64,000 nucleotides of DNA from an uncultured Bacteroidaceae bacterium (GTDB lineage Bacteria > CAIWAD01). The position numbers and the translations under genes were made by a program. The stretch is from the NCBI GenBank assembly GCA_964568855.1, contig CAZMSD010000015.1:15458-79457 (forward strand). Direction: 5' to 3'. The notes beneath the pieces were generated by a model. That model made no database searches, was not told where the DNA came from, and saw only the letters and a program-made list of their open reading frames with translations. This document shows, piece after piece, positions 1,154-43,920 of this stretch (positions are counted from its first letter, which is position 1; each line of letters begins with the position of its first letter).

Positions 1154-1621
1154 ATGCGGTACCTGGCGCTGTTGCGGCATGGTGACACCGAGGGCAGGGG
1201 ACTTTCGCACCACGGCCGCATGCAGGCCGAGACCCTGGGTCTGCAGCTGTTGCGGCTGGAGCTCTCCGCCGAACGGGTGAGCGTGGTTACTTCGCCGGCC
1301 TTGCGGGCGCGGCAGACCGCTGCGCTGGTGGGAAAACTGCTCGGGATTCATCGCTGCGCCCGGGATCCCCGCCTCTGGAGCGGCCCGGGAGGGCACGAGC
1401 GCAGCTACGATCTGGACAGCGGGGAGTTGCTCGAATCGCTGGACTCGCCGGACGGGAATCCGGAACTGCTCGTGCTTGTAACACACATGGAAATCTGCCA
1501 GGACCTACCGCCGCGGCTGGTGGAGCGCTATGGTTCCCAGGGTCCTGCGGTAACGTACATCGGCCGCGGTTGCGGAGTGCTCTACGACCTGAAGCGCGGG
1601 ACGCACGCGCTTATTGGATAG
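1154..1621 (+). CDS. sixA: histidine phosphatase family protein (SixA-like phosphohistidine phosphatase)
   Basis: RHG motif (LLRHGDTEG) near the N-terminus, about 155 aa. An AAGGAGG Shine-Dalgarno sits 6 nt before ATG 1154; the track ORF begins at 1136. Confidence 0.6.
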   Translation: MRYLALLRHGDTEGRGLSHHGRMQAETLGLQLLRLELSAERVSVVTSPALRARQTAALVGKLLGIHRCARDPRLWSGPGGHERSYDLDSGELLESLDSPDGNPELLVLVTHMEICQDLPPRLVERYGSQGPAVTYIGRGCGVLYDLKRGTHALIG

Positions 1622-3851
1622 TCTCCAGGGCCAGTCTGAAACCGACGTCGGCGGCGCGATACTCCAGTGGATAGGGCGCGGAACCGCCCGAACCGCGCAG
1701 CCAGGATGCGCCCGCGGCCAGCGGACCTGCGGGGCCGATCACCCATTCGCGGACTCCTCCCGTCGGGCGCTGCGCCCTGGGTCCGTTTCCCGATTTCTCG
1801 TCCATCACGACCAGGGCGGCTTGCGGCAGGATTCTCGAAGCTGTTACGGTCCCGGCGGGTGGGTTATCTCCGGCGCGGGCGCCGAGTGCTTTTTCCAGGT
1901 CCGCGAACTCTTCCTCCCGCAGCAGTCGATAGCAATCCCGGGCCTTCGTTTCCACGCCCAGATCGAGATCATATGCCGCGGATCTTCCCTCGCGCCGGTT
2001 CAGCCAGTCGCAGTAGGCCATCGCTTCCCGGGGACTCAGGTTGACCATCGGCAGTTCGGGACGCTCGAAATAATCCTCGAGCCCCTCGACGGGCAGCCGG
2101 GGGGGAAAGTCGCGCCCGCTGTCCCGGCAATACATCCGGTATTCCGCCACGCTGACTTCCCGTTGTGATACAGACAGGTTCTCCAGCGCGATCCAGGAGT
2201 CGTTGAGCCCGCTGACGGCGGCCCTGAGAGCGGGCGTCCAGCCGGAGCTGCGCCAGGTGCAGGCGCCGCGCGCGAAGTACTCCAGCAGAACCTGGGAAGG
2301 TGGACGGCGATCCACCAGTGCTCCCGCGCTCCAGTCCGCCCGAAGCAGCAGGCTGTCCCCGCCGGCCACGCGCAGCACCTCGACCCGGTCACGCAGCCAG
2401 GAATCCTCCGTGGCCCAGCTCAGGCGTACTCCCTTACCCGCCAGGTCGATCCTCAGATCGCCGGGCGGGCCCGGTTCGAGGCCCACGACCTTCCAGGGCG
2501 ACCATTCGCTCAGGCGATCCCCGTTCCGGGATCTCCAACGGCATTCGAATCTCCGGGTATCCGGCAGCGGCCGCAGCAGGTGGAACGCTGCAAAGACGCC
2601 GCGCGTCGCCCGTTCGGCCCGGCGGCAATCGATCTCCCAGGTCTCGGTCCATCCGCCGGGATCCGGCAACTCCGCCCGGATCAGCGTATCACCGGACGAA
2701 CTGAATACGAGCTCGAGGGGCGGCCGCCAGCGCAGGTCCACGCGGCCGGTCCAGACCGCCTTCCTCGCGCCTGCATCCCGGGCAAGCAGCTGGATCCACA
2801 AGGGTTTGAGCGGCAGGTCCCGCAACAGCACCGCGTTTCGGCTGAGAGAACCGCCTCCCGTGCTTCCTCGCCTGCCGAGCCACAGGATCTCGGTCTCCGC
2901 GGGAATCCGTCCTTCGGGGAAGACCAGCTCCAGTTCGCCGGGCGCCGGACGGTCCATCCGAGGCTCGAGAGATCGATCGCGGACTTCCCAGAGAATCGGC
3001 AAGGATCGGCTTCCCTGTTGGTCCCTGGAGGCCACGAGCAGCTCGCCGGGTGGTCCGAAAGCGACCATGTAGCGCGGTTGCTCGCCCCCCAGGGGCCGCA
3101 ACTCGGCCTCTCCGCGCAGCAGCAGCGGAACGCAGCCGGAGGGCAGTTCGAGCTCGATCCCTGAGGAATGGACGCTGAGCACTCGCGGCGGGGGTGGCAG
3201 GTCCGGAGCCTCGGGGAGCGCCAGTCCGGCGACACCCGCCGGCACTCCGGGCATCTCGCCGAGTTGATCCGCGGGAAGCGGATCCTCCCAGTCCCCCAGC
3301 CGAACCTCGCGGGCGCTTCCCGCCCACGAGACGGCAATCCGGTTCCAGTCCCCCGGCGGCAACTGGGCCCGGCCCTCCGCGGCGGGGAAGGTCAGCACCT
3401 CGCTCAGCCGGACGTCCCGATACAGGCTGACCCAAAGCCTGTCCAGCGGGCAGGCGGGCGGATCCCAATGCATCACATCGTCTTCCAGGCGCGGATTCAA
3501 TTCCGGCGGCCGGCGCGTCCAGATCCTCTCGGAACCGTAGACCGGCAGGCCGTTCTCAGGCTCGCGCCCGTGAAGCCGGAACCAGACCGTGCCCCCGGGC
3601 GGAGGTGCGGACCGGCGCAGCACGATTTCAGCGCCTGAATCTTCCAGGACCTGAACGGTGCGGAAACCCTCGCCCCGGTCCTCCTGCAGGGCGAAGAAGG
3701 AATCCGGGTCGATTCTGAGCAGCAGGCTGTCGCAGGAAACCGGTTCCACCCGGATCCGGCCGGTCCCGGGGGCTTCGTCGGCCGCGGCGGTCGTCGCGGC
3801 GAGCAGCAGGGCGCAGGCCAGGCCCGGGGCTCTCGGCGGGAGGGATTTCAT
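1611..3851 (-). CDS. secreted protein with a C-terminal FGE-sulfatase (SUMF1/GldJ-GldK-PorK family) domain
   Basis: 746 aa with signal peptide MKSLPPRAPGLACALLLAATTAAA. The C-terminus carries FGE-like motifs (PMVNLSPREAMAYCDWLN ... YRAADVGFRLA). The start overlaps the upstream gene stop by 4 nt. Confidence 0.6.
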   Translation of the reverse strand: MKSLPPRAPGLACALLLAATTAAADEAPGTGRIRVEPVSCDSLLLRIDPDSFFALQEDRGEGFRTVQVLEDSGAEIVLRRSAPPPGGTVWFRLHGREPENGLPVYGSERIWTRRPPELNPRLEDDVMHWDPPACPLDRLWVSLYRDVRLSEVLTFPAAEGRAQLPPGDWNRIAVSWAGSAREVRLGDWEDPLPADQLGEMPGVPAGVAGLALPEAPDLPPPPRVLSVHSSGIELELPSGCVPLLLRGEAELRPLGGEQPRYMVAFGPPGELLVASRDQQGSRSLPILWEVRDRSLEPRMDRPAPGELELVFPEGRIPAETEILWLGRRGSTGGGSLSRNAVLLRDLPLKPLWIQLLARDAGARKAVWTGRVDLRWRPPLELVFSSSGDTLIRAELPDPGGWTETWEIDCRRAERATRGVFAAFHLLRPLPDTRRFECRWRSRNGDRLSEWSPWKVVGLEPGPPGDLRIDLAGKGVRLSWATEDSWLRDRVEVLRVAGGDSLLLRADWSAGALVDRRPPSQVLLEYFARGACTWRSSGWTPALRAAVSGLNDSWIALENLSVSQREVSVAEYRMYCRDSGRDFPPRLPVEGLEDYFERPELPMVNLSPREAMAYCDWLNRREGRSAAYDLDLGVETKARDCYRLLREEEFADLEKALGARAGDNPPAGTVTASRILPQAALVVMDEKSGNGPRAQRPTGGVREWVIGPAGPLAAGASWLRGSGGSAPYPLEYRAADVGFRLALETIQ

Positions 3852-4570
3852 TTGCCCGGTGCGCCGACGTACACCGTGTCTACGACCTGGCTCTCGAGAA
3901 TCAGCAGGTCGTGCAGAACCTTATCGACGATGTAGGTGGTGTCCTGGCGCAACACTTCCACCACGTCCACCACGCGCCGTCTTTCCCTGACCGTTCCCAC
4001 GGGCAGGCCGCGGGCGTAGAGGCTGTCCGCCGTGTAATCCCAGACGCGGAAGAGCAGGCCCTCGCCGCCCATGTCGAGCGCCATCTCGAACTCGCCCTCG
4101 CCCAGGTTGTTGCGCGATGCTTCAAGCAGGTCGGCCAGCAGGGAAGCCACGGCGCGGTCGGCCTGCCGGAGCTCCCCCGCGGAGACGTCGCGCGGGGCGT
4201 GCAGTTCGCGGTTGGCCTCGAATTCCCAGTGGCGCATCCGCTCCTGCAGCTCCGCGCTCAGTGAGCGCAGCACGTGGATTCCGCCCTCCGGAAGAATGCG
4301 CAGGACGTCTCCCTCGCCGAATCCGTCGCCGCCCAGGTCGTGCAGCTCGAGTCTTTCGACGCCTGCCGGATCGACCGGAATCAATTGCTGGACCAGCAGT
4401 TCGCGTATTACACCCGGATCGGCGATGCCGGCCTCGAGATGCATCACGGGCCGGACAAGGGGCGCCTGCGCCTGCGCCGAACCGAAGCACAGCAGCGCCG
4501 CCAGGCAGGCGGCCCGGATCGCGCTTCGCCTGGCCGGGCCGAACCGCCCTGATCGGTTCGTTTCGCTCAT
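3848..4570 (-). CDS. hypothetical secreted protein
   Basis: An internal Met (MSETNRS..AACLAALLCFGSAQA) gives a signal peptide. ATGA overlap with the TPR gene stop at 4567. Confidence 0.5.
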   Translation of the reverse strand: MSETNRSGRFGPARRSAIRAACLAALLCFGSAQAQAPLVRPVMHLEAGIADPGVIRELLVQQLIPVDPAGVERLELHDLGGDGFGEGDVLRILPEGGIHVLRSLSAELQERMRHWEFEANRELHAPRDVSAGELRQADRAVASLLADLLEASRNNLGEGEFEMALDMGGEGLLFRVWDYTADSLYARGLPVGTVRERRRVVDVVEVLRQDTTYIVDKVLHDLLILESQVVDTVYVGAPGK

Positions 4571-6084
4571 CGCTTCAACTCCATGACCCGCTCCCATGAG
4601 CGCCGGGCTTCCGCGGCCCGATCCAGCCGCCGATAAACTTCGGTCAGCGCGGTGTGGATCTGGATCTGGTCGGCCCTGGTGCATTCGTGGTCCCTGTCAC
4701 AGCGATCCAGGGCGAGCTCCAGCCAGGTCAGTGCCTCCTTGGGACGGTTGATCAGCAGCGATCCGATTCGGGCCGCCAGCAGCGGGTAATAACGGTTGTC
4801 GCTGTCCACGGCCGCCAGGTACTGCTCGTAAGCCCGCAGAGGCTCCGCCGATTCGATCTCGGAGCCCAGGTTCAGCGTCATCAATCCTCGTGTGTCACGG
4901 ACCCGCCGGGCCAGGCTGTCGGGCAGCGACGCGGCGCGCGGATCCTCCAGCAGCTCGACCACACGGCCCAGGGCGAGTTCCTGCATCTCCAGCTTGTAGA
5001 ACTCCAGGTCCGCGAGGGCCAGCACGTTTCCGGCCAGCGCCTCGGACCGACGGCTGTTCTCGACGGCCTCCAGCAGGAGTTCGCGGGCCTCGATCTCGCG
5101 ACCCTGTTCGATCAGCTTCCAGGCCCGGTCGATGCGCAAGGCCTGGCTCAGGCTGCCGCCCGCGCGGTTGAGCCAGCGCCTGAGTTCGGCGATTTCCTTG
5201 AGTTCGCCCGCCGTCGCCAGGGGCTCCCACTCAGCCACGCTTTGCCTGAACACGTCCTCCCGGCCGGTGTCCATGGCCAGGCGCACGCGCTCCCTGAGGA
5301 TGAACACGAGGTGGCTGCGGCGACGCCCCACCGGACGTTCCGGACTGCCCCCCCGGTCCTCCCAGGCATAGGCGCGCAGGACGGACGCGGCCCTTCCGTA
5401 CTGCTCCAGCGCTTCGTCCTTTCTTCCCGTATCACGAAGCAGGTCCGCCAGATCCCAGTGCGCGAAATAGCTTGAAGGATCGAGCGCCAGCCGCTTGCGG
5501 ATCACCTCGATCGCCCGGTCGCGGTACTCGAGGCTGGCGTAGATCCGGCCCAGGTCCTCGAGCACGCCGCCCATGCTCTCGAGGACTCCGGCGTCCCATG
5601 GATTCGCCGCCAGGGCCTGCTCGAAGCGTCCCAGCGCCTCCACCAGCCGTCCGGCCACGCCGGTGCGGATTTCCTCGCGCAGGCCGGCGAGTTCGTCTAG
5701 ATCCATCTCGGAGGGATAGCGACCGCCCGTCAGGTCCAGCGCGTTCTGCATCTGCCTGAGCGCCTGCTCGTACAGGTCGAAGTAGGCCCGGGTGTCCGCG
5801 ACGGCCGAGCGGCGCAGCGAATCCAGCGCCAGCACGATCCAGGTCCGGTCCGCGATGGAGGCCCGGATCTCCTCGCCCTGGCGTTTCAATTCTTCGGCCA
5901 GCTCGCGCCGCTCGTCGTCCACCATGGCGCCCGACTCGCCGGCGGCGTCCCGCTCGGCCAGGATCCTGTCCGCGGTCCGCGTGATGCCCGGGGGGTCCCT
6001 GTCCTGGGCGTCCGCGGATGACGCGAGCAGGATCAGGACGGCCAGCAGCATCGCGGCCGGGCGAATCGTTCCGGTCCGGTTCAT
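4567..6084 (-). CDS. tetratricopeptide-repeat (TPR) protein, secreted
   Basis: Signal peptide MNRTGTIRPAAMLLAVLILLASSADA followed by repeated A/L/E/Y-rich TPR-like helices. Start codon overlaps the stop of the upstream gene (TAATG). Confidence 0.6.
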   Translation of the reverse strand: MNRTGTIRPAAMLLAVLILLASSADAQDRDPPGITRTADRILAERDAAGESGAMVDDERRELAEELKRQGEEIRASIADRTWIVLALDSLRRSAVADTRAYFDLYEQALRQMQNALDLTGGRYPSEMDLDELAGLREEIRTGVAGRLVEALGRFEQALAANPWDAGVLESMGGVLEDLGRIYASLEYRDRAIEVIRKRLALDPSSYFAHWDLADLLRDTGRKDEALEQYGRAASVLRAYAWEDRGGSPERPVGRRRSHLVFILRERVRLAMDTGREDVFRQSVAEWEPLATAGELKEIAELRRWLNRAGGSLSQALRIDRAWKLIEQGREIEARELLLEAVENSRRSEALAGNVLALADLEFYKLEMQELALGRVVELLEDPRAASLPDSLARRVRDTRGLMTLNLGSEIESAEPLRAYEQYLAAVDSDNRYYPLLAARIGSLLINRPKEALTWLELALDRCDRDHECTRADQIQIHTALTEVYRRLDRAAEARRSWERVMELKR

Positions 6085-6989
6085 TACAGACCCTCCAGGA
6101 ATTGCAGCAGCGTCGCGTGCAACGCTGCGGCGTCGTCCAGCCTGCTGTAACGCGCGATGATGGTCCGCGAGGCGCCTTCCCGGAACAGCTCGCCCCGCTT
6201 GAGCGACCTGAGCGCGCAGCCGTCGCCCGCCAGGACCATCACCAGCAGCTCGTCGCCCTTCTGCAGCAGCAGCGAAGCCTCTCCGGAGCCCTCCTCCAGG
6301 CAAAGGGTCGACTGCCAGCGATCGCGGCCCAGCATGATTTCCCCGCCCCTGGCCGGTTTCGCGCCGCAGCCCGCGAAGCGACGGAATTCGCCGCCGAGTT
6401 CCCGCACGGGCGATGCATGGTAATAGGCGACCAGCCGGTCCCAGTGGGTCGCCAGCTCGAGCCCCGGTTCTCCGCCCTCCCCAAGCGCCACGTCGCGCTC
6501 GGTGTCGAGCCGTCCGATCAGGGACCTGGAATCGCGCGTCCGGGTGTCCTCGGCCCGGGCCGGCAACTCGGGCAGGTCGGGCCGCTCGAACAGGCTCCGG
6601 TCGCCGAGTGTCACGCGGTTGTCGAAGCGCGAGCGATCTCTCCCGGGATCGCCTTCCAGGATGTCAAGCGCATCGCGGTCCCGGGCCAGACCCGGCAGGT
6701 AGCGCCGCTCCGGCGAATCGGCCGGCGACCTCTCCGTGACACGGGGCATGGCGCGCGGAATCCGCAGCTCCACGCGCTCGCGCATCCTTTCCCGCACGCG
6801 ATTCATGTGCGAAGGAGCCTGGTAGATCTGGCGGACCCAGGTCATCAATTCCGCGCCGGGGACTTCGACGCGCTGGGGGCGCTGGATCCTGAGCAGCGAG
6901 AGCGTCGAGTAGAACAGCAGCATCAGCAGCAGGCTGCCGCCCCATGCGATCTGCTGGATCCTGCCCCGGTTCAGTTCGAGACCGCTCAT
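6084..6989 (-). CDS. membrane-anchored protein, putative TonB-like energy transducer
   Basis: N-terminal transmembrane segment (IAWGGSLLLMLLFYSTLSLL), a charged Pro/Arg/Glu/Asp-rich linker and a C-terminal globular domain. Sits at the tonB position of the exbB-exbD-exbD-tonB-TPR arrangement. The start was verified as ATGA overlapping the exbD stop. Confidence 0.45.
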   Translation of the reverse strand: MSGLELNRGRIQQIAWGGSLLLMLLFYSTLSLLRIQRPQRVEVPGAELMTWVRQIYQAPSHMNRVRERMRERVELRIPRAMPRVTERSPADSPERRYLPGLARDRDALDILEGDPGRDRSRFDNRVTLGDRSLFERPDLPELPARAEDTRTRDSRSLIGRLDTERDVALGEGGEPGLELATHWDRLVAYYHASPVRELGGEFRRFAGCGAKPARGGEIMLGRDRWQSTLCLEEGSGEASLLLQKGDELLVMVLAGDGCALRSLKRGELFREGASRTIIARYSRLDDAAALHATLLQFLEGL

Positions 6990-7432: not shown

Positions 7433-7818
7433 GGGAACGCGATCTCCGTTTCCGGCCGCTCCAGCACTACTTCCAAGGCCACGGGCAGCTCCAGTCCGCG
7501 GCAGACGTTCAGCACCGCCGCAACTCCGGCGCCGGGCTGGTCCCGATCGACGCGCAGGCGCACGCGCTCGGAGCCCTGGGCCATGAATCCCGCCAGCACT
7601 TCCCGTAATCCCGCAGCATTGTCAGCCTCGACCCGGTCAGACCCGCAAATGAAGCCGCCCTCGGGCATGATTCCGACCACGATCCAGTCCTCGAAGTCGG
7701 GCGGCACGGCGGGCAGGTAAGCGGCCCGCGGCAGGTCGCGCTCGATGGAGCGGTCCACGTGGCTGATGGAAATGAAGCCGAAGAGCAGAATCAACACGAT
7801 GTCGATCAGCCTGATCAT
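7429..7818 (-). CDS. exbD: biopolymer transport protein ExbD/TolR (second copy)
   Basis: N-terminus MIRLIDIVLILLFGFISIS. 129 aa. 4-nt overlaps with both neighbouring genes. Confidence 0.8.
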   Translation of the reverse strand: MIRLIDIVLILLFGFISISHVDRSIERDLPRAAYLPAVPPDFEDWIVVGIMPEGGFICGSDRVEADNAAGLREVLAGFMAQGSERVRLRVDRDQPGAGVAAVLNVCRGLELPVALEVVLERPETEIAFP

Positions 7819-8624
7819 GCCTCGACCCTGTCACCGGCCCGCCGCTTGCGATCGATGTCCAGCGAGCCTTCCTGCAGCATGGCCTGCCTGATTTCAGTCA
7901 GCTTCTGGTATTGCCCGTCCAGCACGCCGTCGAAGTAATTGCGCACCAGGGTCAGTACGAGGTTCAGCAGCAGGCTGACGATGATGCCCACCAGGGTCGT
8001 GATCAGGGCCACTCCCATGCCGTGCAGGATCTTGTCCTTGTCCAGCGTGCCGCCGAAGAAGGTCTGAAACATGCCCAGGACGGTTCCCAGCAGGCCCAGC
8101 GCTCCGGCGCTGTCGGACAGGAAAGTCATCCAGTTCACGTAGGGCTTGAACCAGTCCTGGCGCACGGTCATGAAGCGCTCGATGTTCGCGCCCAGGCTGT
8201 CGTGGTTGCGCGAACTGATGAACTGGGCCAGCATGTCCCTGGCGCCCGCGGCCAGTTCGCTGGTGGGCTGCCCCTCCATGTCCGACAGCAGCTCGCGGGC
8301 GAGTTTGGCCCTGGCCGGCAGGCGGTGTATCACCTTGCTCCGACCGCGATCCACGTGCACCATCAGGACCCGCGCCACGCTGAGGGCGATTCCCACCAGT
8401 AGCAGTACGTAGATGGGATAGCAGATCCAGCCTCCCATCGCCAGAACATCCAGCACGGGGATGGACGCGGATTCCGCTCCCTGGGCCGCCGCCGCGGCCG
8501 GCAGGAGAGCGAGAACCAGCCCCGTTACAAGGCCCGGCGGAATTGGTGTGATTCCGGATCTCACGGCGGATCCTCCGTTCGTTTCGCAGGTCTCAGTCTT
8601 CATGTTAGCGCCCGTTGTTTGCAT
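7815..8624 (-). CDS. exbB: MotA/TolQ/ExbB proton-channel protein
   Basis: Transmembrane segments and the family motif LGLLGTVLGMFQTF. The N-terminal 40 aa resemble a signal peptide; an alternative start lies at 8603. Confidence 0.8.
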   Translation of the reverse strand: MQTTGANMKTETCETNGGSAVRSGITPIPPGLVTGLVLALLPAAAAAQGAESASIPVLDVLAMGGWICYPIYVLLLVGIALSVARVLMVHVDRGRSKVIHRLPARAKLARELLSDMEGQPTSELAAGARDMLAQFISSRNHDSLGANIERFMTVRQDWFKPYVNWMTFLSDSAGALGLLGTVLGMFQTFFGGTLDKDKILHGMGVALITTLVGIIVSLLLNLVLTLVRNYFDGVLDGQYQKLTEIRQAMLQEGSLDIDRKRRAGDRVEA

Positions 8625-8627
8625 CGC

Positions 8628-10346
8628 TTATTCCTGCATGATGATGTGGATCCCGTCCACTCCGGGAGGCAGCTCCTCCGCGGGATCCAGGGCCCGCAGG
8701 TGAACGTGTCTCACGCGGTGTACGACGTGGACCTCGGAATGCTCCTCCCCGACGGCGACGCCGGAGGAATCGAACAGCAGCAGGTCGACGCGGCCCGTCC
8801 CCGCATCCGGCAGCCCGCCGCGATCGTCGTACACGGGCAGCAGCAGCCGCTCCGGGGGAGCGCCCGCTCCCTCGACCCGGCTGGTGTGCCCGCCGGCGCC
8901 CCTGAACACCAGGCGCCAGGCGGAGACATGGCCCGCGAAGTCGTCGTCCAGCAGAACCCGCAATTCCAGGTTCTCCGGCACGGGAATCGTCGACCCGCTG
9001 GGGGGCAGCGCCCTCCGGGCGCCGACCCGCGCTTCGACCGGAGCGCCCGACAGCGCGGCCAGGTCCTCGATGCGCATGCTCCGCTCGCCGGCGTGGATCA
9101 CGGGAACCACGCCCCGCTCCCGCGCCATGGTTTCCAGTAGCGCAGTCAGCCGGTAGTACTCGCGAGAGTAGGTCTCGCGAACCACCTCGCCTCCCTGCGG
9201 TACCACGCGCTCTCCCTCGGGAAGCTGCGCGGCCAGCACGGACTCGAGCGGGATCTCGTCCGCCAGCTCCTGCGGCAGGTGCAGGTGCAGCTCCATCAGG
9301 TCCACCGTCGCCCGGGGCAGCGCCATCAGCACCGGGGCCCTGGCGGCGTCCCAGCGCCGTCCGAAGAGACCGCGCAGTCCCCCCCGGCCCAGGGAAGTCT
9401 CGCCGGGCGCGTACACGCCCGGACCGCCCGCCGGTCCGAACCTGCCGGGCGACAATCCACCGCCCAGGTCCAGCCTGTAGACCAGCCGGTGGCTGCTCCC
9501 GGCCCGGTCTGCGAAATCGCCGATGGGAAAAGTAAGCTCGTAAGAGCAGCTGTGGTGTTCCTCCCAGGCCGCGGACATGGACAGCGCGAATCCTTCCTCG
9601 CGCACCCTCCCGGCCAGCTCCACGCCGGGCAGCACCCGGTAACCGGCTTCCAGGCCCGGTCGCGGTTCCTCGATCAACTCATCGAGCAGACCGCCGTCGC
9701 TGCGATTGTAGGCCAGGTTGTCGAGCGTGAGACCCAGGCGCAAGGGGCCGCCGCTCCAGTGAAGCCCCAGGTACTCGCGCAGCGGGGCGCGCGGTTCGCT
9801 CCCTGAAAGCGCCAGGCTGGGCCGGTTGATGTGCTTCAGGCCCAGCCCCAGGCGCAGGCCGCCCAGGGGCGACCAGAACACTCCCGCGCCCAGCACGGGC
9901 TGGATCCGGTCGCTGCCGTTGCGGAACACGGGATCCTCCGTCACGCCCTCGCTGAAGCGCGAAGTGTTCCAGCCGAAATGCCGGAAGCCCAGCTCCAGGC
10001 CCAGCGACAGGTTGCCCAGCGGCCGGTAGGCCCAGTCTAGGGCGATTTCCGACTCGTTCATCAGGTCCGTGTCGCGGTGCAGCGCCAGCAGGGCCAAGTT
10101 CCAGCGAGGAATCGAGAAGCTGAATCCGCCCTGTCCGAAGGCGGCCGGGCTGTCGGCCAGTCCCGTGTGCAACAGCTTCCAGGTAACCTCGAAGGCCACC
10201 GGCTGCCAAACGGCGAGGGCCGGATTCACGCGCAGGCCGCTGTGGTCTTCCAGCACGGCGGGATTGCCATAGGCGGCCATTTCGGCGCGAGCGGTAATGG
10301 GAATCGCCAGCACCAGGGCGCAGGGGATCAGGCGGTCGAGTTTCAT
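8628..10346 (-). CDS. T9SS PorP/SprF-like outer-membrane protein fused to an additional C-terminal domain
   Basis: Signal peptide MKLDRLIPCALVLAIPITARA, then a region with beta-barrel-like alternating hydrophobic residues (LGLELGFRHF, YRLDLGGG). Lies immediately downstream of a type-B CTD protein, which is the established pairing. About 250 extra C-terminal residues of unknown function. Start verified as an ATGA overlap. Confidence 0.5.
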   Translation of the reverse strand: MKLDRLIPCALVLAIPITARAEMAAYGNPAVLEDHSGLRVNPALAVWQPVAFEVTWKLLHTGLADSPAAFGQGGFSFSIPRWNLALLALHRDTDLMNESEIALDWAYRPLGNLSLGLELGFRHFGWNTSRFSEGVTEDPVFRNGSDRIQPVLGAGVFWSPLGGLRLGLGLKHINRPSLALSGSEPRAPLREYLGLHWSGGPLRLGLTLDNLAYNRSDGGLLDELIEEPRPGLEAGYRVLPGVELAGRVREEGFALSMSAAWEEHHSCSYELTFPIGDFADRAGSSHRLVYRLDLGGGLSPGRFGPAGGPGVYAPGETSLGRGGLRGLFGRRWDAARAPVLMALPRATVDLMELHLHLPQELADEIPLESVLAAQLPEGERVVPQGGEVVRETYSREYYRLTALLETMARERGVVPVIHAGERSMRIEDLAALSGAPVEARVGARRALPPSGSTIPVPENLELRVLLDDDFAGHVSAWRLVFRGAGGHTSRVEGAGAPPERLLLPVYDDRGGLPDAGTGRVDLLLFDSSGVAVGEEHSEVHVVHRVRHVHLRALDPAEELPPGVDGIHIIMQE

Positions 10347-13300
10347 CTTGCCACCCCCACCTGGCCGCGTTGTATTACGCGGTTGCCGTCCAGCATCACG
10401 AAGGGATAGACTCCCGGCAGCAGCGGGTGCCCGCCTGGGGCGGCGTCCCACTCGTATCGCCTGTCGCCCGTGGGCAGGCTCCTCGCCAGAACGCGCCGCC
10501 CGTTGAGGTCGTAGATCTCCAGCCGGAAGCGCACGCTCGGCGGAAGATCGCCGAAATCGAATACGCAGCGGTCGTTGAAACCGTCGCCGTTGGGCGTGCA
10601 CACGTTGGGCGTCACGCCAACGGGCTGGACGAACAGGTCGACGCAGCCTTCGTGCTCGTTGTCGGCGGGGTCGTCCGCGGGATTGCCCGTGCTCAGCTCG
10701 ATCCGCCAGCAACTGCAGGCGCCCGCCAGGGGCAGTCCGACGGTCATGCTGGTGTCGAGTTCCACTCCCGCGGGCAGTTCCAGCCAGTCCCAGTCATGGC
10801 GCACTCGCTCCACTCCGTCCAGCTCGCCCGCCAGGGTCAGCGGTCCTGCATATCCCCAGCCGCCGGCGTCGATGCGCAGAACGAATTCCAGCGTATCTCC
10901 GTAATACATCCGCGTGGGCGGCGCATCCAGCAGCGACAGGCCGGGATCTCCCCCCGCCTGGCGCAACGTGAACACTCCCGTCACCTCGGTCGCCAGTTGC
11001 ATCGCGGTGGAAGTGTCGGCCGCGCTGAAGCGCCAGTGCAACTGCCCGCCGAAGCGCAGTGAGTCTCCCAACTGCGGCGCCAGCGAGATCGCGGCCGAGA
11101 GATGGCCCTCGTCGAAGGAGGCCTGCGCCAGCGGATCCTGGTGCTGGGCGTCGGGGCTGACGGTCAGGCTTCCCGAGAAGGCGTCGCCGTCCACTTCCTC
11201 CGCCACCCAGTTCAGGAGGTACTCCGCACCCTCGTGCAGCTCGGTCACGCCGGCGGGAGCCTCCACCAGCCGCGGCGGATCGTCCGCAGGCTCGATCTCG
11301 AGCGCCAGTGTGTCCAGGTGGCTGCCGCCCCCCGGATCGTCCAGGCGGAAACGCAACCCCAGGCCCGGGAAGAGGGCCGAGTTCACGTCCCCGGCCGGCT
11401 GCAGCAGCACCGCCAGGGGATCCGTCGCCGTAATCTGGATCACGCTGTCCGGGTCCTGGGCGCCGTGTCCGAGCAGCGCTTCGATCTCCGCCTGCCAGCC
11501 CTCGGTGTCCGCGCCCGGGTAGAAGGTCCAGTCCCGGAAGTCCAGCAGGTAGTCCTGGTCTTCGACCATCGGCACGGCGGGCGGCCTGGTGTAGAGCACC
11601 AGGCGACCCTCGGCCCGCGCCAGGTAACCCTCCGGCGTGCCCAGGTCCAGGATCGAGAAGCGCCACCACAGCTCACCGCTGTAGTCCGCCGAATCCCCCA
11701 CCTGGGGAGTCCAGCTCCAGGTCCAGCTGCCGCCTTCCGGCACGTCCACCGTCTGCACGGGCTGCGTGTGCTCCGCGTCCAGGCTGAGCAGGAACTCGCG
11801 CTCCGTGGAATCTCCGTCAACTTCGACCCAGTTGAATTCCAGCTCCAGCAGGGCCCCCTCGCGGGCACCGCCCTCCTCCGGCGGGAACAGCAGCACCACG
11901 GGCGGATCGTCCGCCGGCAGGATCGTCACGGTCAGTGTATCACGAGTCTCGTTGTGCGAAGAATCGGTGAGCAGCAGCGCCAGGCCCAGCTCGGGATACA
12001 GGTCGCTGTTGGCGTGGGACTGGGGCTCCAGATTCAGCTCGAAGCCCGCCTGCCAGCCGACCTGCAGCACGGAATCGGGCAGCTGTCCCTCCGTGCCGAC
12101 GACTCCTTCGACCGCCAGCAGGACCTGGTCCAGCGGGCCGTCCGGGTCCTCGATCAGCGGCCCCAGGTCCACCACCTGGGCCTGGTCCTCGTTCAGGGAA
12201 GGAAGCCCGCCCGTGAAGTAGGGCGGGTAGGGGCATTCCAGCAGCCCGGTCAGATCAACGTGAACAGTGTCGCCGAAATCCGCCGGCGCGTTGCCGGCGA
12301 GTCGCAGTATGGCCGATTGCAGCCAGGGCCAGGGCTCCTCCATCGGGGGGCAGAAGTACAGCGGCAGGGCCGCGCTGTCTCCCGGCTGGATGTTCAGCGT
12401 ATCGACGGTGACACAGAAGCTCTCGGGCGCGCTGGTGCTGTCGTCCCCGGATGGCAGGACCTCCGGCAGGCCCACCCGCAGCCAGGCATCGCCCTCGTTC
12501 GAAATCCACAGGGTATCCCCGGGACAGCCGTCCTCGCAGTCCTCGTGCCCGCCGCAACTCGTTCCCAGGAAGAGCGAGTCCCCGGAGGCGGTCATTTCGG
12601 AGAAGCCCGCCTGGGCGCACAGCGCCACCGCCTCGTTGTAGTGCTGTTGACAGCCCGGCACGTTCCAGGCCACGCTGAACTGGCCCGAACCGTAGCACGA
12701 ATCATCGACCGCCTCGGCGTGATACGTCACCTCCACCAGCAGGCTGTCGCCCGGAAACAGCGTCGTTACTCCGGGATTCGACCAGGAGAAGGGAAAACCT
12801 GGATCCACCGGCGGATCCGAGAGGGTCAGCTCGATTTCGGCGGCCACCGACCGATTGTGGAATTCGACCGTCCGGACAGGTTCCTCGCCCACCGGCACCT
12901 GCAGGTAATACAAGGTGTCGGGAACGGTCAACTGGTGCACTCCGACCACCTCGTCCAGATACAGGTTCAACCGGCCGTCCTGGTAAAGCACCGCCATGTC
13001 GTGATCACCGTCGGCGTTGGCGTCGAAAACGCGCAGGCGGCTGGGCGGAGCGGGAATCGCCCCGTCGGACAGGAGATCGACGCCCTCGGGGCTGCGCGGA
13101 TCCTCGTGCAGGCGGATGCCCGAATGCCCGGCGAAGAGCACGCCGCCGCCCGCGATGGATTCCACGTCGTGCAGCGGCTCGGGGTAGGTCCAGGTGGAAA
13201 CGTCGACCCGGTCCTCCACCGGATCGATGTTGCTGAAGACGACCACCCGGCCGTCCTCGCGCCAGGCGATAACGTCCGGCATGTACTGGGGATCGAAGTC

Positions 13301-14431
13301 GTTCCAGCGCTCCAGGTGTTGCAGTCCTTCGGCCACGGCGGTTTCCGCCGTCCATACGATATGCATCTGCTCGCCGTCCCAGCCGGCCATCTTCAACGGC
13401 TCGGGCGACGATTCGAGCAGCAGCAGGTAGTCCGTGTCGCCTTCCGCCGGGTACTGCTGGCCGTGCAGCATCAGCATGTCCAGCGGGTCGCCCAGGCCGC
13501 TGAGCAGTACCTCGGCCGAGTCGGGCAGCAATCCCGAGCAGTCGCCGGCGTTGGGATAGAGAATCAGCTCTCCTCCGCGGTTGGCCACCAGCAGGTCCTG
13601 GCACAGGTGATCCGGCCGGGCGCGATAGGCCAGCGCCAGCTTGGGCGATTCGGTGAAGATCTCCTCCTCGAGGACCATCTGCTCGAACTGGGGAACGTCG
13701 TCCGGGCCCGTGCGCAGGAACAGTGTGATCTGCTCCTCCTGGCCGCCCGTGTTGAGCACGAAACCTTGGCCCTGGTGCCCGCTGAGCGAGATTGTCGACA
13801 TGCGCCGGTCCACCGACCAGTTGGACAGCAGCTCCCCTCCCAGGCCCTGGGCCTGGGGCGTGCCGGCGCAGTCCACCAGGCCCAGCATCACGATCCGGTC
13901 GCGGGCCACCAGCGTCAGGTCCACCATCCCGTCGCGGTCGAGCTCCATCGGCAGCAGGTCCACCATCTCGCTGGCCTCGCCCTGCAGCTGGAGGGAGTAG
14001 GGCTGGCTTTCGCCGATCCACTCGCAGTCGGAACAGACGAAGGGCCACTCGGTGTGATACATCTCCAGGGTTACGGTGTCGGCGACGCTCGAGTCCGCCT
14101 TCAGCTCGATGCGCACGCGCGAGGCCGTGATCCAGGGATAATTGTCCACCAGCGGGATCAGGAAAACGGTTTCGTAGGGTGGCTGGCCCACGGGGGAGGG
14201 GTTCCAGTAGAGAAACCCGCGCTGCTCGTCGCGGATCTCGATCAACTGCCCGAGCTGCACGAACTCGTCGACGGACATGGGCGGCGAAAGCTGCAGCTGG
14301 ATGTTGTCCAGCGGGCCCAGCGGGTCGCCCGGCGCGGGGGTCACCTGCGAGATCCGCGCCTGCGCGACCTGCAGCACGCAGCAGAGCGAAAGCGCAGGCA
14401 CGAAGCGGAAAAACCTGGAACGATCAACCAT
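10343..14431 (-). CDS. giant cell-surface adhesin with T9SS type-B C-terminal domain (SprB-like)
   Basis: 1362 aa after the signal peptide MVDRSRFFRFVPALSLCCVLQVAQA. Repeated ...ADDPP... Ig-like modules. C-terminus CTPNGDGFNDRCVFDF...EIYDLNGRRV matches the gliding-motility-associated type-B CTD. Confidence 0.8.
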   Translation of the reverse strand: MVDRSRFFRFVPALSLCCVLQVAQARISQVTPAPGDPLGPLDNIQLQLSPPMSVDEFVQLGQLIEIRDEQRGFLYWNPSPVGQPPYETVFLIPLVDNYPWITASRVRIELKADSSVADTVTLEMYHTEWPFVCSDCEWIGESQPYSLQLQGEASEMVDLLPMELDRDGMVDLTLVARDRIVMLGLVDCAGTPQAQGLGGELLSNWSVDRRMSTISLSGHQGQGFVLNTGGQEEQITLFLRTGPDDVPQFEQMVLEEEIFTESPKLALAYRARPDHLCQDLLVANRGGELILYPNAGDCSGLLPDSAEVLLSGLGDPLDMLMLHGQQYPAEGDTDYLLLLESSPEPLKMAGWDGEQMHIVWTAETAVAEGLQHLERWNDFDPQYMPDVIAWREDGRVVVFSNIDPVEDRVDVSTWTYPEPLHDVESIAGGGVLFAGHSGIRLHEDPRSPEGVDLLSDGAIPAPPSRLRVFDANADGDHDMAVLYQDGRLNLYLDEVVGVHQLTVPDTLYYLQVPVGEEPVRTVEFHNRSVAAEIELTLSDPPVDPGFPFSWSNPGVTTLFPGDSLLVEVTYHAEAVDDSCYGSGQFSVAWNVPGCQQHYNEAVALCAQAGFSEMTASGDSLFLGTSCGGHEDCEDGCPGDTLWISNEGDAWLRVGLPEVLPSGDDSTSAPESFCVTVDTLNIQPGDSAALPLYFCPPMEEPWPWLQSAILRLAGNAPADFGDTVHVDLTGLLECPYPPYFTGGLPSLNEDQAQVVDLGPLIEDPDGPLDQVLLAVEGVVGTEGQLPDSVLQVGWQAGFELNLEPQSHANSDLYPELGLALLLTDSSHNETRDTLTVTILPADDPPVVLLFPPEEGGAREGALLELEFNWVEVDGDSTEREFLLSLDAEHTQPVQTVDVPEGGSWTWSWTPQVGDSADYSGELWWRFSILDLGTPEGYLARAEGRLVLYTRPPAVPMVEDQDYLLDFRDWTFYPGADTEGWQAEIEALLGHGAQDPDSVIQITATDPLAVLLQPAGDVNSALFPGLGLRFRLDDPGGGSHLDTLALEIEPADDPPRLVEAPAGVTELHEGAEYLLNWVAEEVDGDAFSGSLTVSPDAQHQDPLAQASFDEGHLSAAISLAPQLGDSLRFGGQLHWRFSAADTSTAMQLATEVTGVFTLRQAGGDPGLSLLDAPPTRMYYGDTLEFVLRIDAGGWGYAGPLTLAGELDGVERVRHDWDWLELPAGVELDTSMTVGLPLAGACSCWRIELSTGNPADDPADNEHEGCVDLFVQPVGVTPNVCTPNGDGFNDRCVFDFGDLPPSVRFRLEIYDLNGRRVLARSLPTGDRRYEWDAAPGGHPLLPGVYPFVMLDGNRVIQRGQVGVAR

Positions 14432-15305
14432 CGCTTCCACCTGTATCACCGGAATCTTTGAGCTTGTCGATGAAGCGCAGCCACAGGGCCGTATCGCGGT
14501 AACCGCGGGGTCGCAGGTCCTCGAAGGCGCCGCGGGCCTCGGCGTAACGGCCCGTGCGCGCCAGGGCGACGGCCCGCAGGTAGCGCTCGTCGCGCCCCCG
14601 GGGAGGCCGCCGGGTGAACTCGAGCAGCAGCCGGGACCAGGCACCGGCCGCACCCAGCGCTTCGAGGTCGCCGGTATCCAGATCGCCGACCGCCGTCCGG
14701 TATGCCTCGCAGATGTCGTTCGTCCGATCGGGATGCCTCAGCAGCAGGCGAACCAGGTCCCGATGATCCGGATCGGCTCCCGGGCGCCTGAGCAGCGCCA
14801 GGCAGGCCTCCGCGCCGCCGGCCCTCAGGGCCAGGTCCAGGCCTTCGCGGGGCAGCGAGGCGAAGCGCTCGAAGATGCTGTCGGGCGCCGTTTCCGGCGA
14901 CCTGCCCGTCTCCTCGGCTGCGGCCGCCAGGGCCCGCACCCAGCATTCGGCCATCGCGCGGCCGCCTCCCAGAGCGCGGTCCAGCAATCGGTAGATCGAA
15001 TCCCGTTCCGCCGGCGGGCGGGCGTCCGCCCAGCGGCAGAGATCCCGCCGCCAATCCGCCGGCAACCGGCCTTCCAGGGTTTCGGCCGCCGCCCGCAGGT
15101 CGCCGTCCTGCCAGCGCAGCCAGGCCAGCTGTCGCAATTCCTCGCTCGAGGGCCGGCCGCCGGCGGCGCGCAGCGATTCGAGCTGCTGCTCCAGCGCCTC
15201 TCTCGCGCGGGTCGTTTCCCCGGCGATCAGCAGGTCGCCCGGCGAGGGAGTCAGGTCGACGCAGGCGACGGTCCCTGCCAGGACAATCGGAACCAGCGCC
15301 CGCAT
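14424..15305 (-). CDS. alpha-helical (TPR-like) lipoprotein or secreted protein
   Basis: Signal/lipobox MRALVPIVLAGTVACVD. Ala/Arg/Leu-rich helices. 8-nt overlap with the adhesin gene start. Confidence 0.5.
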   Translation of the reverse strand: MRALVPIVLAGTVACVDLTPSPGDLLIAGETTRAREALEQQLESLRAAGGRPSSEELRQLAWLRWQDGDLRAAAETLEGRLPADWRRDLCRWADARPPAERDSIYRLLDRALGGGRAMAECWVRALAAAAEETGRSPETAPDSIFERFASLPREGLDLALRAGGAEACLALLRRPGADPDHRDLVRLLLRHPDRTNDICEAYRTAVGDLDTGDLEALGAAGAWSRLLLEFTRRPPRGRDERYLRAVALARTGRYAEARGAFEDLRPRGYRDTALWLRFIDKLKDSGDTGGSDG

Positions 15306-22889: not shown

Positions 22890-22954
22890 CGTTCCTCCAG
22901 TACTGTTGGATGCCCCGCAGGTTCCGCTCCCGCCGGCACCGCGACGTCGCGAGC

Positions 22955-28171: not shown

Positions 28172-28500
28172 GGGGATCCTCCGTATTTCCATTCTGTGTC
28201 TGGTCGTTTCGTGATCCGATTCTGCCGGTTCCTCGTTGCGCAATTGTAATGCCAGTCACATCCGCGGGGGGCGGTTGTCTGCATGGTCAGCGTTTCCGAA
28301 GCTGAAATACTGGGATTACGAAGTGTGGAATTCAGAAAGGTATGGATTTCGGGCAGGACGCCGAATCAATCAAGCGGTAGTTCGGAAGGGCCAAAGTGGT
28401 TCATTTGGCTATTGACCGTGGAGATAACCCTCCAGCGGGCATGGTCGGCACCCCGATCGGTGAATAACACAACAAAAGGGCCCCGACCGCTTGGATGGGT

Positions 28501-38341: not shown

Positions 38342-38374
38342 AGCGTCGAAAGGCTAGCAGTGCCGGTCGCGGAT

Positions 38375-43916: not shown

Positions 43917-43920
43917 GCAG

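Follow-up and report, generated by a model that had tools for sequence, protein, structure and literature searches.

A cluster of ten genes in the 64,000-nucleotide stretch of DNA analyzed here (the window) appears to encode an envelope-spanning module for which we found no precedent, in that the searchable literature holds no description of an operon combining a proton motor, a PorP/SprF barrel and an adhesin. Our preferred reading, which we hold to be somewhat better than an even bet, is that a 5:2 proton motor acts through an anchored protein (X), a secreted TPR protein and a second secreted protein (Y) on the periplasmic tail of a barrel that holds the adhesin. The output would be movement, activation or export of the adhesin. 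The genes are listed in Table 1.

Table 1. Genes of the cluster, from first to last, with positions in the window
Feature	Position	Strand	Basis
Putative TPR-like lipoprotein, 293 aa, first gene	14424..15305	-	Weak TPR matches; signal peptide with Cys from sequence
Secreted adhesin, 1362 aa, T9SS type-B (CHU_C) C-terminal domain	10343..14431	-	Sub-cut-off CHU_C match and CTD similarity
PorP/SprF-family outer-membrane beta-barrel with C-terminal extension	8628..10346	-	HMM matches, AF2 model, Foldseek
MotA/TolQ/ExbB-superfamily A subunit of 5:2 proton motor	7815..8624	-	PF01618 MotA_ExbB
ExbD/TolR-type B subunit, paralogue 1, 129 aa	7429..7818	-	PF02472
ExbD/TolR-type B subunit, paralogue 2, 148 aa	6986..7432	-	PF02472
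Protein X, 301 aa, candidate force transducer	6084..6989	-	Three-part layout
Secreted TPR protein, 505 aa	4567..6084	-	TPR_12, TPR_2; signal peptide from sequence
Protein Y, 240 aa, secreted	3848..4570	-	Conserved D-x3-(N/D)GFG-x2-D motif
Secreted 746 aa protein, degenerate C-terminal FGE-sulfatase-like domain	1611..3851	-	PF03781

An earlier, sequence-only reading of this DNA had described ten minus-strand genes overlapping at every junction. All ten ORFs are present on that strand, each with an ATG start and a single stop, and eight of the nine junctions do overlap, by 1–8 nt; in gene order the values are 8, 4, gap, 4, 4, 4, 1, 4 and 4 nt. The exception is the PorP/ExbB junction, which reads TAA-GCG-ATG and thus has a 3 nt spacer. 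This becomes 24 nt under the second-Met ExbB start chosen by one gene caller (262 aa member P0055), and is 20–96 nt in orthologues. No promoter-like or terminator-like excess that might separate the genes was detected between them, in a scan whose promoter types exclude those of the Fibrobacteres-Chlorobi-Bacteroidetes (FCB) group. Since collinearity across Candidatus Delongbacteria takes in the entire region, with selA, selB and the genes downstream, synteny within that lineage is silent on function and gene overlap is weak evidence for a shared one. For example, selB and the first gene of the cluster share 4 nt in L004, an orthologous locus, so tight overlap is not specific to the adhesin and motor genes.

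More informative are distant loci. Relatives of the ExbB-like protein numbered 151 in a metagenome scan, and the neighborhoods of 80 loci were analyzed. Upstream counts are based on 60 loci, duplicates excluded, whose upstream sequence is 1.5 kb or longer, and downstream counts on 35 loci with 6.5 kb or more on that side. The survey was anchored on ExbB relatives; the reverse case, a long PorP without the motor, was examined inside Delongbacteria only. The distant relatives are 30–40% identical to the window protein, have GC contents of 34–73% and lie between differing flanks. A long PorP/SprF-family barrel gene is directly upstream of exbB in 44 of the 60 loci, usually preceded by an adhesin with a type-B CTD. 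For example, in all five distant relatives looked at individually (L008–L012, 34–40% identity) the genes directly upstream encode PorP_SprF and a CHU_C adhesin, with different flanks. The PorP partner of the motor is always long-tailed, with ORFs of ~1.7–2.0 kb. In 13 loci, genes for type-B-CTD cargo separate exbB from exbD1; among the five such loci that were scanned, these genes encode mostly VWA-domain proteins (CHU_C 34–49 bits, cut-off 27). Adjacency in unrelated contexts, together with cargo inside the motor operon, supports a tie between the adhesin/PorP pair and the motor genes beyond mere adjacency, as judged from gene order.

The tie is not universal, and part of the pattern that the sequence-only reading had named as counting against a dedicated module is seen. 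In the remaining 16 of the 60 loci the motor core has no adjacent PorP or adhesin gene, and the genes upstream were unrelated in the six scanned, so the core can exist alone, at least genetically. These loci make up a few nested clades on a rough NJ tree with midpoint rooting, which reads as loss or relocation and not as the ancestral state. The core itself, ExbB-ExbD-ExbD-X-TPR-Y, is nearly always intact in distant relatives (ExbD1 in 35, ExbD2 in 34, X in 35, TPR in 27 and Y in 33 of the 35 loci) and shows higher conservation than the genes for PorP and the adhesin. The module is known here from its genes alone, in many uncultured bacteria with unrelated neighboring genes.

The genes at either end of the cluster are outside this core. 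The sequence-only reading had seen the FGE-family gene as hard-wired to the adhesin and motor, and this was not sustained: among loci with enough downstream sequence it is present in 4 of 35, all in Delongbacteria (L001, L002, L004 and L007, plus their duplicates). The encoded protein, a Delongbacteria-specific accessory outside the conserved module, matches PF03781 partially (profile positions 34–119 of 255) at 23.3 bits, which equals the cut-off, and its profile retrieved only FGE-fold matches from the PDB, all weak (ToxD, 1.5e-3; SUMF1, PvdO and FGE, 0.14–0.17). Given its confinement to Delongbacteria, the analogy to GldJ/GldK carries little weight. The first-gene lipoprotein is likewise a lineage-variable accessory. 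It is optional even within Delongbacteria, where L004 has it and L001 and L002 do not, and in distant loci its position is usually taken by a TPR protein of 312–333 aa. Matches to the "lipo" HMM are found upstream of the adhesin in L009–L011, L023, L024, L039, L054, L059, L076 and L082, and the L010 homologue has strong TPR matches.

The A subunit is a clear match to PF01618 (44.4 bits, cut-off 22.9), yet it is far under every NCBIfam equivalog cut-off. Its subfamily has the signature FLSDSAGALGLLGTV, with GLLGTV and ALxTT invariant in the alignment, and the subfamily profile scores PDB sequences of MotA, TolQ, PomA and ExbB at 33, 26, 25 and 23 bits. These scores are roughly equal, and the subfamily is a distinct one. 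The B subunits are close to or below the PF02472 cut-off of 25.4 bits, at 25.3 for ExbD1 (TolR, 19 bits) and 23.1 for ExbD2. The ExbD1 motif RLIDIVLILLFGF, with the Asp of the transmembrane helix, is kept in all orthologues, and the ExbD2 motif RLIDVVLIILIGF, also with an Asp in the transmembrane helix, is conserved.

Protein X has a transmembrane helix at its N-terminus, a linker of ~145 residues that is charged and disordered, and at its C-terminus a globular domain of 120 aa. The last was modeled confidently and has no good fold match among solved structures; the protein has no Pfam or NCBIfam match and lacks the SHLS/His motif, through which TonB and TolA attach to their motors. We therefore rejected X as a TonB homologue, there being no TonB_C domain, SHLS motif or TonB fold. 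Its earlier description as TonB-like holds for the domain layout, but not for fold and motif. The TPR protein downstream (TPR_12, 51.9 bits; TPR_2, 45.9 bits) is encoded by a gene triplicated in one clade of loci. Protein Y has no match in Pfam, NCBIfam or the PDB; in an alignment of 15 homologues D78, G83, F84, D88, W115 and W177 are invariant.

The assignment of the barrel to the PorP/SprF family, also made in the sequence-only reading, is carried by its relatives. The window protein itself gives partial, sub-cut-off matches to PF11751 (19.3 bits, cut-off 22.3) and TIGR03519 (25.6 bits), but homologues in L008, L009, L010, L012 and L039 exceed the PF11751 cut-off at 26–47 bits and have a weak FlgD_ig match at the C-terminus. 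In the AF2 model, a barrel (residues ~30–295) is followed by ~270 aa of C-terminal extension, the last part of which is an Ig-like beta-sandwich (459–549), with pLDDT 80–90 in barrel and sandwich. The best Foldseek matches of the barrel in the PDB are to the T9SS protein PorV (8gl6_F, E 3.5e-9; 6h3i_F), with FadL and OmpG next. Ordinary PorP/SprF proteins are ~300 aa. In a barrel with an even number of strands the two termini lie on the periplasmic side, and this would place the ~270-residue tail there.

The adhesin upstream is under the CHU_C cut-off of 27, at 21.4 bits. Over the C-terminal domain it shares 36% identity (E 4e-12) with the L010 adhesin, which matches CHU_C with no below-cut-off mark, and the adhesins of L024 and L059 reach 27.5 and 35.5 bits and also carry FG-GAP, ASH, CARDB and cadherin domains. 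Relatives of the adhesin combine an integrin-like FG-GAP propeller with ASH/HYDIN Ig, cadherin-like and CARDB domains, and FG-GAP-like DxDxDG motifs, e.g. FDANADGDHDMAV, are visible in the window sequence. The label SprB-like is thus apt for the type-B CTD, but beyond the CTD nothing else is common with SprB.

In the machine that we propose, an ExbB-like pentamer and a heterodimer of the two ExbD/TolR paralogues would form a proton-driven 5:2 motor in the inner membrane; proton use is assigned from family membership and conserved channel residues, and the stoichiometry from solved relatives. Protein X, anchored beside the motor by its single transmembrane helix, would cross the periplasm by its disordered linker and end in a globular domain of neither TonB nor TolA fold. 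A transducer role is suggested by its layout, gene order and the precedent of non-TonB transducers beside tolQ, two tolR and TPR genes (PMC12204202). In the outer membrane, the barrel would hold on to the type-B C-terminal domain of the integrin-like adhesin, in the manner of SprF with SprB and of PorP with PG1035 (PMC9143113). By way of X and the two secreted proteins, TPR and Y, the motor might then pull or turn the barrel tail, and this might move, expose or load the surface adhesin, giving gliding-type motility or force-dependent adhesion. The missing SHLS/His motif of X speaks against the model, as do the sub-cut-off PorP and CHU_C matches of the window proteins.

The same PorP/adhesin linkage would equally fit a dedicated export or assembly energizer, in which the motor powers either the crossing of the outer membrane by the type-B cargo or the loading of this cargo onto the PorP barrel, paralleling or replacing GldLM/PorLM for one substrate instead of moving the adhesin afterwards. 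The embedding of cargo genes inside the motor operon is in its favor, as is the requirement of T9SS secretion for a proton motor (PMC8986121). However, the module has no SprA, PorV, GldK, GldL, GldM or GldN homologue, so the translocon must come from elsewhere. At least five type-A CTD cargo proteins are encoded in the window; the organism therefore uses a T9SS, and such cargo implies an ordinary one with its own motor. We regard the export reading as unlikely, and give about the same low credence to the motor core being an independent envelope system, for example for Tol-Pal-like outer-membrane tethering or uptake, that merely tends to adjoin the adhesin and PorP genes, a wider version of the ordinary alternative in the sequence-only reading. 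The latter can draw on the 16 loci with other genes upstream, on the higher conservation of the core and on the overlap of functionally unrelated genes in this lineage, seen in L004 between selB and the first gene. Against it are the 44 loci with PorP adjacency across such a range of GC content and flanks, the 13 with cargo between exbB and exbD, the invariably long tail of the PorP partner, the distinctness of X from both TonB and TolA, and the absence of any TonB-dependent receptor, TolB or Pal gene from the module.

Bacteroidota Ton operons have an order like ExbB-ExbD-ExbD-anchored protein-TPR, and the sequence-only reading had offered, as the ordinary alternative, a housekeeping Ton system beside adhesin genes by chance. 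The results for X contradict this alternative, since TonB_C domain, SHLS motif and TonB fold are all missing from it. Also against it, the A subunit reaches 23.9 bits against the TIGR02805 cut-off of 135, its subfamily profile scores MotA above ExbB, and the conserved partners are PorP and cargo instead of TonB-dependent receptors. We consider it very improbable. Overall, the earlier observation is partly confirmed and its interpretation, a motor module dedicated to the adhesin, partly supported.

Our preferred reading, a motor acting on an adhesin-holding barrel, can be placed among known systems. Ton (ExbB-ExbD-TonB) and Tol-Pal (TolQ-TolR-TolA-TolB-Pal-CpoB) share with the cluster the superfamily of the A and B subunits and the three-part transducer layout, and the operon TPR protein is reminiscent of CpoB. 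The cluster differs from them in having two ExbD paralogues, a transducer with neither the SHLS motif nor the TonB/TolA C-terminal fold, and no TonB-dependent receptor, TolB or Pal. The pairing of a type-B CTD protein with its own PorP/SprF-family barrel is that of SprB-SprF and PorP-PorE-PG1035, where the PorP barrel binds the periplasmic, TPR-containing PorE (PMC9143113). In the Bacteroidota T9SS, adhesin movement is driven by the 5:2 proton motor GldLM/PorLM (PMC8986121), whereas the motor of the cluster is of the PF01618 (MotA/TolQ/ExbB) type with ExbD-type partners, shares one operon with the barrel, which has an extra ~270 aa tail. Transducers of the vWA type, encoded beside one tolQ, two different tolR and a TPR gene and with gliding suggested as function, resemble X in their transmembrane helix, disordered linker and non-TonB-like C-terminal domain (PMC12204202). 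The C-terminal domain of X is not a vWA fold, X has no SHLS/His motif, and VWA domains belong to the secreted cargo in relatives of the cluster but to the transducer itself in those systems, for which that work reports no linkage to PorP/SprF or type-B cargo.

Parallels are also seen with the Agl-Glt focal-adhesion gliding machine of Myxococcus xanthus, whose core complex comprises AglR, AglQ, AglS, GltG and the TPR proteins GltC, GltD and GltE (PMC3169522). Both have one TolQ-like and two different TolR-like subunits, a membrane-anchored, periplasm-spanning partner, several TPR proteins, outer-membrane barrels and a core found as one operon in unrelated bacteria. GltG has FHA and TonB_C domains, neither of which is found in X, and no counterpart of Y was identified in Agl-Glt. 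In the cluster a barrel of the PorP/SprF family is the outer-membrane partner, and T9SS type-B cargo takes the place of lipoproteins as adhesins. The adhesins are of the same two kinds, VWA and integrin-like: two reports give CglB and CglD as adhesins of this TolQR-type gliding machine (PMC9946355; bioRxiv 10.1101/2023.10.19.562135), and the loci of the cluster encode VWA proteins and FG-GAP propellers.

Ten ORFs, each with an ATG start and a single stop, lie on the minus strand between positions 1611 and 15305, at the coordinates that the sequence-only reading had assigned to them, and their third-position GC is high, as is usual for coding sequence (the window has 68% GC). In gene order they encode a TPR-like lipoprotein, an adhesin, a PorP-like protein, an ExbB-like protein, two ExbD-like proteins, a protein designated X (301 aa), a TPR protein, a protein designated Y (240 aa) and an FGE-like protein. 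The same reading held that every junction overlaps; eight of the nine do, but the PorP and ExbB genes are separated by a 3-nt spacer (in order, 8 and 4 nt, the spacer, then 4, 4, 4, 1, 4 and 4 nt). Among orthologues this spacer is 20–96 nt. The cluster is bordered upstream by selB, on the same strand and 40 nt away, and downstream by a convergent histidine phosphatase gene. A consensus scan of the cluster, with FCB-group promoter types outside its consensus set, found no excess of promoter-like or terminator-like sequences beyond chance.

Positions of the module genes and of other features in the window
Feature	Position	Strand	Remark
FGE-like protein	1611-3851	minus	
Y	3848-4570	minus	
X	6084-6989	minus	
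ExbB-like protein	7815-8624	minus	
PorP-like protein	8628-10346	minus	
Adhesin	10343-14431	minus	
selB	15346-17262	minus	
DjlA_TM/TerB/DnaJ-like gene	17274-18053	minus	splits selA and selB
selA	18063-19577	minus	
Weaker T9SS type-A CTD protein	21774-23150	minus	
Repeat inside the preceding gene	22071-22754	minus	two 300-nt copies, 100% identical, 384 nt apart
T9SS type-A CTD proteins, three consecutive genes	26525-28243, 28591-29787, 30326-31996	minus	Por_Secre_tail 33-49 bits
DUF4175 and DUF4159 genes	34805-39217	minus	DUF4175 protein 1178 aa
Surface-polysaccharide block	43125-51368	plus	sulfotransferase-like, heparinase II/III-like, GT2, GT4, Wzy_C (O-antigen ligase/polymerase-like)
Weaker T9SS type-A CTD protein	59235-60353	minus	with lamin-tail domain

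Judged by profile scores from the window alone, most of the labels proposed for these genes are unproven, since the ExbD matches are at threshold, the PorP_SprF and CHU_C matches are below it, the FGE match is partial, and X and Y have no match. The ExbB-like protein is a clear member of the MotA/TolQ/ExbB family (PF01618, 44.4 bits against a cut-off of 22.9), but it scores only 23.9 bits against the Ton-system ExbB equivalog (TIGR02805, cut-off 135.35) and falls equally far under the cut-offs of the MotA, PomA and MotP equivalog models. When its profile was compared with PDB sequences, MotA reached 33, TolQ 26, PomA 25 and ExbB 23 bits, so that "ExbB" is a nominal label only. The subfamily has the signature FLSDSAGALGLLGTV (also given as SDSAGALGLLGTV), and an alignment of 16 members has invariant GLLGTV and ALxTT motifs; in TolQ and ExbB, these Thr residues line the proton path. 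The two ExbD-like proteins score 25.3 and 23.1 bits against PF02472 (cut-off 25.4), unmarked matches to this family occur in distant ExbD homologues, and both paralogues retain the transmembrane Asp in RLID(I/V)VLI at all loci examined. The proton-path residues of the motor are intact.

Many distant ExbB-like proteins are longer, at 400–530 aa (ORFs of about 1.5 kb in, e.g., the homologous loci L016, L018 and L024). Their C-terminal extension of 150–280 aa past the last transmembrane helix should be cytoplasmic, and might serve as the place where a cytoplasmic partner docks. Two homologues, P0043 (L009, 10001-11221) and P0044 (L011, 10001-11203), have an extension with the look of an Ig/carboxypeptidase-regulatory-type beta domain.

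The PorP-like protein gave partial matches to PF11751 (19.3 bits, cut-off 22.3) and TIGR03519 (25.6 bits, cut-off 90.55), while full-length homologues at five loci (L008, L009, L010, L012 and L039) score 26–47 bits, over the Pfam cut-off. A word-indexed search returned 13 homologues, two of them labelled Candidatus Delongbacteria or "bacterium"; precomputed PF11751 matches exist for 3 of 13 close homologues, and the protein was found at three loci among GTDB species representatives. An AF2 model built from 14 sequences has a confident beta-barrel at residues ~30–295 (pLDDT mostly 80–90), a poor middle, and a confident Ig-like sandwich at 459–549; the C-terminus of distant family members has weak FlgD_ig similarity. 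Foldseek against solved structures in the PDB ranked PorV, the T9SS shuttle barrel, as the best match (8gl6_F, E 3.5e-9), with FadL and OmpG next. By model and comparison, the PorP-like protein is an outer-membrane beta-barrel of the FadL/PorV type. Since an even-stranded outer-membrane barrel has both termini on the periplasmic side, its 270-residue tail should be periplasmic.

The adhesin stop codon overlaps the PorP start by 4 nt, and a type-B cargo gene likewise adjoins the PorP gene in L001–L012. The window adhesin itself scores below the cut-offs for both CHU_C (PF13585, 21.4 against 27, at residues 1274–1346 of 1362) and TIGR04131 (13.8 against 35). In the CTD it shares 36% identity (E 4e-12) with the adhesin in L010, and its relatives and other cargo score 27.5–49 bits against CHU_C. 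Domains found in these relatives include Big_5, FG-GAP propeller, ASH/HYDIN Ig, cadherin-like and CARDB.

X was described in the sequence-only reading as TonB-like, a likeness that proved to be one of layout alone. Its gene directly follows exbD2 with a 4-nt overlap. An AF2 model from 8 sequences, together with the alignment, gives the layout of a transducer: an N-terminal transmembrane helix (residues 3–32), a linker disordered up to residue 177, and, at the C-terminus, a globular domain (pLDDT >90) composed of two helices, six strands in antiparallel arrangement and a last helix. TonB and TolA force transducers have an SHLS motif with a His in the transmembrane helix. The helix has neither this motif nor any His in 9 of 9 homologues, and it can therefore be concluded that X has the layout of TonB without homology to TonB or TolA; neither a TonB_C domain (PF03544) nor the TolA domain III fold was found at its C-terminus. 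A word-indexed search with X returned X alone, and an exhaustive search of representatives added 7 homologues, all with E <1e-9, which are presumably orthologues from the same clade. Y is secreted and carries a conserved DxxxNGFGxxD motif. Neither protein has a Pfam or NCBIfam match, PDB profile searches with the two gave nothing meaningful, and for Y they detected no relative of known structure.

Close relatives are no help in deciding whether these genes belong together; the distant ones are decisive. The Delongbacteria loci are collinear throughout: upstream of the cluster they share DUF6029, selA, DjlA/TerB/DnaJ and selB, and downstream of it His_Phos and AmiA-like genes. In the Delongbacteria locus L004, selB also runs 4 nt into the first cluster gene, and in two others (L001 and L002) that first gene, the TPR-like lipoprotein, is missing. 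Because the whole neighbourhood is collinear and even selB can overlap the cluster, conserved order and overlap within this clade say nothing about function, and translational coupling was rejected as proof of a functional link. Every Delongbacteria locus has the selA-DjlA_TM/TerB/DnaJ-selB trio immediately upstream of the module. The window contains no tRNA gene, tRNA-Sec included.

The distant ExbB tier has 30–40% identity, with E values of 1e-17 to 1e-43 compared with 1e-7 for generic ExbB proteins. Five such relatives were looked up (L008–L012); their flanks differ, their GC is 43–59%, and one cluster is labelled as a Rhodothermaceae MAG. All five have a PorP_SprF protein of 552–677 aa directly upstream of ExbB and a CHU_C adhesin upstream of PorP (~1,070–1,160 aa where complete). 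L012 ends inside exbB, leaving the downstream order readable in the other four. In L009–L011 it runs TPR, adhesin (~1,070–1,090 aa; FG-GAP, ASH, CARDB, CHU_C), PorP_SprF, ExbB, ExbD, ExbD, X (354–374 aa), TPR (517–530 aa) and Y (245–277 aa). L008, which starts within the adhesin gene, has only a single called ExbD; after it come X (343 aa), TPR (534 aa) and Y (230 aa).

A metagenome scan with the ExbB subfamily alignment gave 151 relatives, from which 80 loci were examined, all of their ORFs being scored with family HMMs built from L001–L012. The sequence reaches 6.5 kb or more downstream in 35 loci; X and ExbD1 are present in all 35, ExbD2 in 34, Y in 33 and TPR in 27, and no gene downstream of Y is conserved across clades. 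Of the non-duplicate loci, 60 have 1.5 kb or more of upstream sequence, and in 44 of these a long PorP gene lies immediately upstream of exbB. Thirteen PorP-positive loci, forming one clade (L030, L034, L043, L045, L046, L048, L049, L052, L055, L062, L069, L075 and L080), carry one to three type-B-CTD genes between exbB and exbD1. In the five of the 13 loci that were scanned, VWA-domain proteins make up most of these inserted cargoes, and the cargoes score 34–49 bits against CHU_C, over the cut-off. The inserts include VWA-domain proteins of small size, and behind some of them lies a larger type-A-CTD protein such as SdrD_B/DUF3344 or VWA-cohesin-dockerin.

PorP is absent upstream in the remaining 16 of the 60 loci. 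Among the upstream ORFs scanned at six of them are those for S46 peptidases, a response regulator, PP2C, FHA/FG-GAP, PEGA and NHL-repeat proteins, with two lacking a Pfam match. On a rough neighbour-joining ExbB tree of uncertain rooting, the PorP-less loci form a few clades nested among PorP-positive ones, a pattern that fits loss or relocation of the linkage. The claim that a Ton-type motor is hard-wired to the adhesin/PorP pair thus gains support from synteny, with PorP adjoining exbB at 44 loci and cargo inside the operon at 13; it does not extend to the 16 loci without PorP, nor to the FGE gene beyond Delongbacteria. One PorP-less clade (L050, L065 and L067) has the module TPR gene as three tandem paralogues, with FHA/FG-GAP and PP2C among the upstream genes in L050 and PEGA/CarboxypepD_reg and NHL-repeat genes among those in L067. 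A PorP-positive clade (L031, L042, L056, L057, L060 and L083) has no detectable module TPR gene and instead shares four conserved genes past Y, of ~700, 408, 160 and 135–150 aa.

The FGE-sulfatase domain is carried by GldJ, GldK and PorK, lipoproteins that are encoded with gldL, gldM and gldN. No gldLMN-like genes occur in the module, and the N-terminal 550 aa of the FGE-like protein contain no GldK-like match. Its C-terminus is a degenerate FGE-type domain, shorter still in L001 and L002: it scores 23.3 bits against PF03781, the cut-off itself, over profile positions 34–119 of 255 only, and the profile of the protein matched only FGE-fold proteins in the PDB, all weakly. The gene is present in 4 of the 35 loci that extend 6.5 kb or more downstream, all Delongbacteria, and absent from all non-Delongbacteria loci. 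Membership of an FGE-family protein in the adhesin/motor module was therefore not borne out, and a role as the GldJ/GldK counterpart of a conserved machine was rejected for a gene that is clade-specific.

To judge from the type-A CTD proteins in the window, the organism clearly uses a T9SS. The 300-nt repeat doubles a ~128-aa block of a secreted protein whose type-A CTD is weak; its copies stem either from very recent duplication or from an artefact of the assembly. At the distant loci L009 and L011, a DUF4159-MoxR-DUF58-BatA block directly follows the motor module. The proximity of DUF4159 and Bat genes may be fortuitous, or may reflect a loose tie to genes of the Bat type.

The conserved operon encodes proteins predicted for every layer of the envelope, with a transducer-like layout in X, a long tail on the PorP-family barrel, and genes for type-B cargo next to those of the motor or within its operon. 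We tentatively propose, as possible rather than probable, a third engine of surface motility or adhesion, in which a TolQR-type proton motor with X, a transducer of a new class, would mechanically drive the PorP/SprF shuttle barrel by its periplasmic tail and so move or tension T9SS-delivered, integrin-like (FG-GAP, VWA) adhesins. It would be a hybrid of Bacteroidota GldLM/SprB and myxobacterial Agl-Glt gliding, shared by several uncultured lineages (Candidatus Delongbacteria and a Rhodothermaceae MAG are among the source names of member proteins). In the scheme of its working that we consider most likely, the motor would act on X, a step suggested by the precedent of non-TonB transducers that adjoin tolQ, two tolR genes and a TPR gene (PMC12204202). 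X, together with the TPR protein and Y, may engage the PorP tail. The barrel would hold the adhesin via its CTD, as SprF holds SprB and as PorP, which also binds the TPR-containing PorE, holds PG1035 (PMC9143113). The outcome would be an adhesin that is moved, tensioned or exposed.

Other explanations can be considered. The motor could be a dedicated energiser of cargo export, which these data do not distinguish from the scheme above but which we think less likely. The genes might also be an independent envelope system that merely neighbours the adhesin genes, as the 16 unlinked loci would suggest, but the 44 linked loci, the cargo genes embedded in the operon and the unvarying long tail of PorP make this similarly improbable. 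That they form a housekeeping Ton operon is hardly credible, and this explanation was rejected because X is not TonB and the ExbB-like protein is, by score, no ExbB equivalog.

The conserved gene module points to a likely chain from the proton channel to a surface adhesin, running from the motor through a transducer with a new C-terminal domain to a tailed PorP barrel and its cargo. If that chain is real, it would provide a compact, testable model of a mechanically driven shuttle barrel and a functional context for the X, Y and PorP tail families, and would tie T9SS type-B cargo handling to TolQR-type motors, which bears on the evolution of gliding machines. To genome annotators the module also offers a set of markers for what may be a motility or adhesion trait of uncultured bacteria from sediments, soda lakes and digesters.

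Proton-driven 5:2 motors power flagella, TonB uptake, Tol-Pal, the T9SS and Bacteroidota gliding, and the gliding of myxobacteria. Every further coupling partner reveals another way in which cells energise the outer membrane, which has no energy of its own. The module belongs with these proton-motor-driven envelope machines, and what is new is the transducer family X, the PorP subfamily and family Y. We found no description of a linkage of PorP/SprF with ExbB, TolQ or ExbD in open-access papers and preprints, and none is mentioned in recent surveys devoted to force transducers and to MotAB homologues. The ExbBD operon of Fibrobacter is an ordinary TonB operon (PMC6851124). The Agl-Glt core complex resembles the module in that both combine, in one operon, one TolQ-like gene with a pair of dissimilar TolR-like genes, an anchored transducer and TPR proteins; however, the GltG-type transducer has FHA and TonB_C domains, and X has neither. 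The module cargo, with its integrin-like propeller and VWA domains, echoes CglD and CglB, which belong to the Agl-Glt machine with its TolQR-type drive (PMC3169522).
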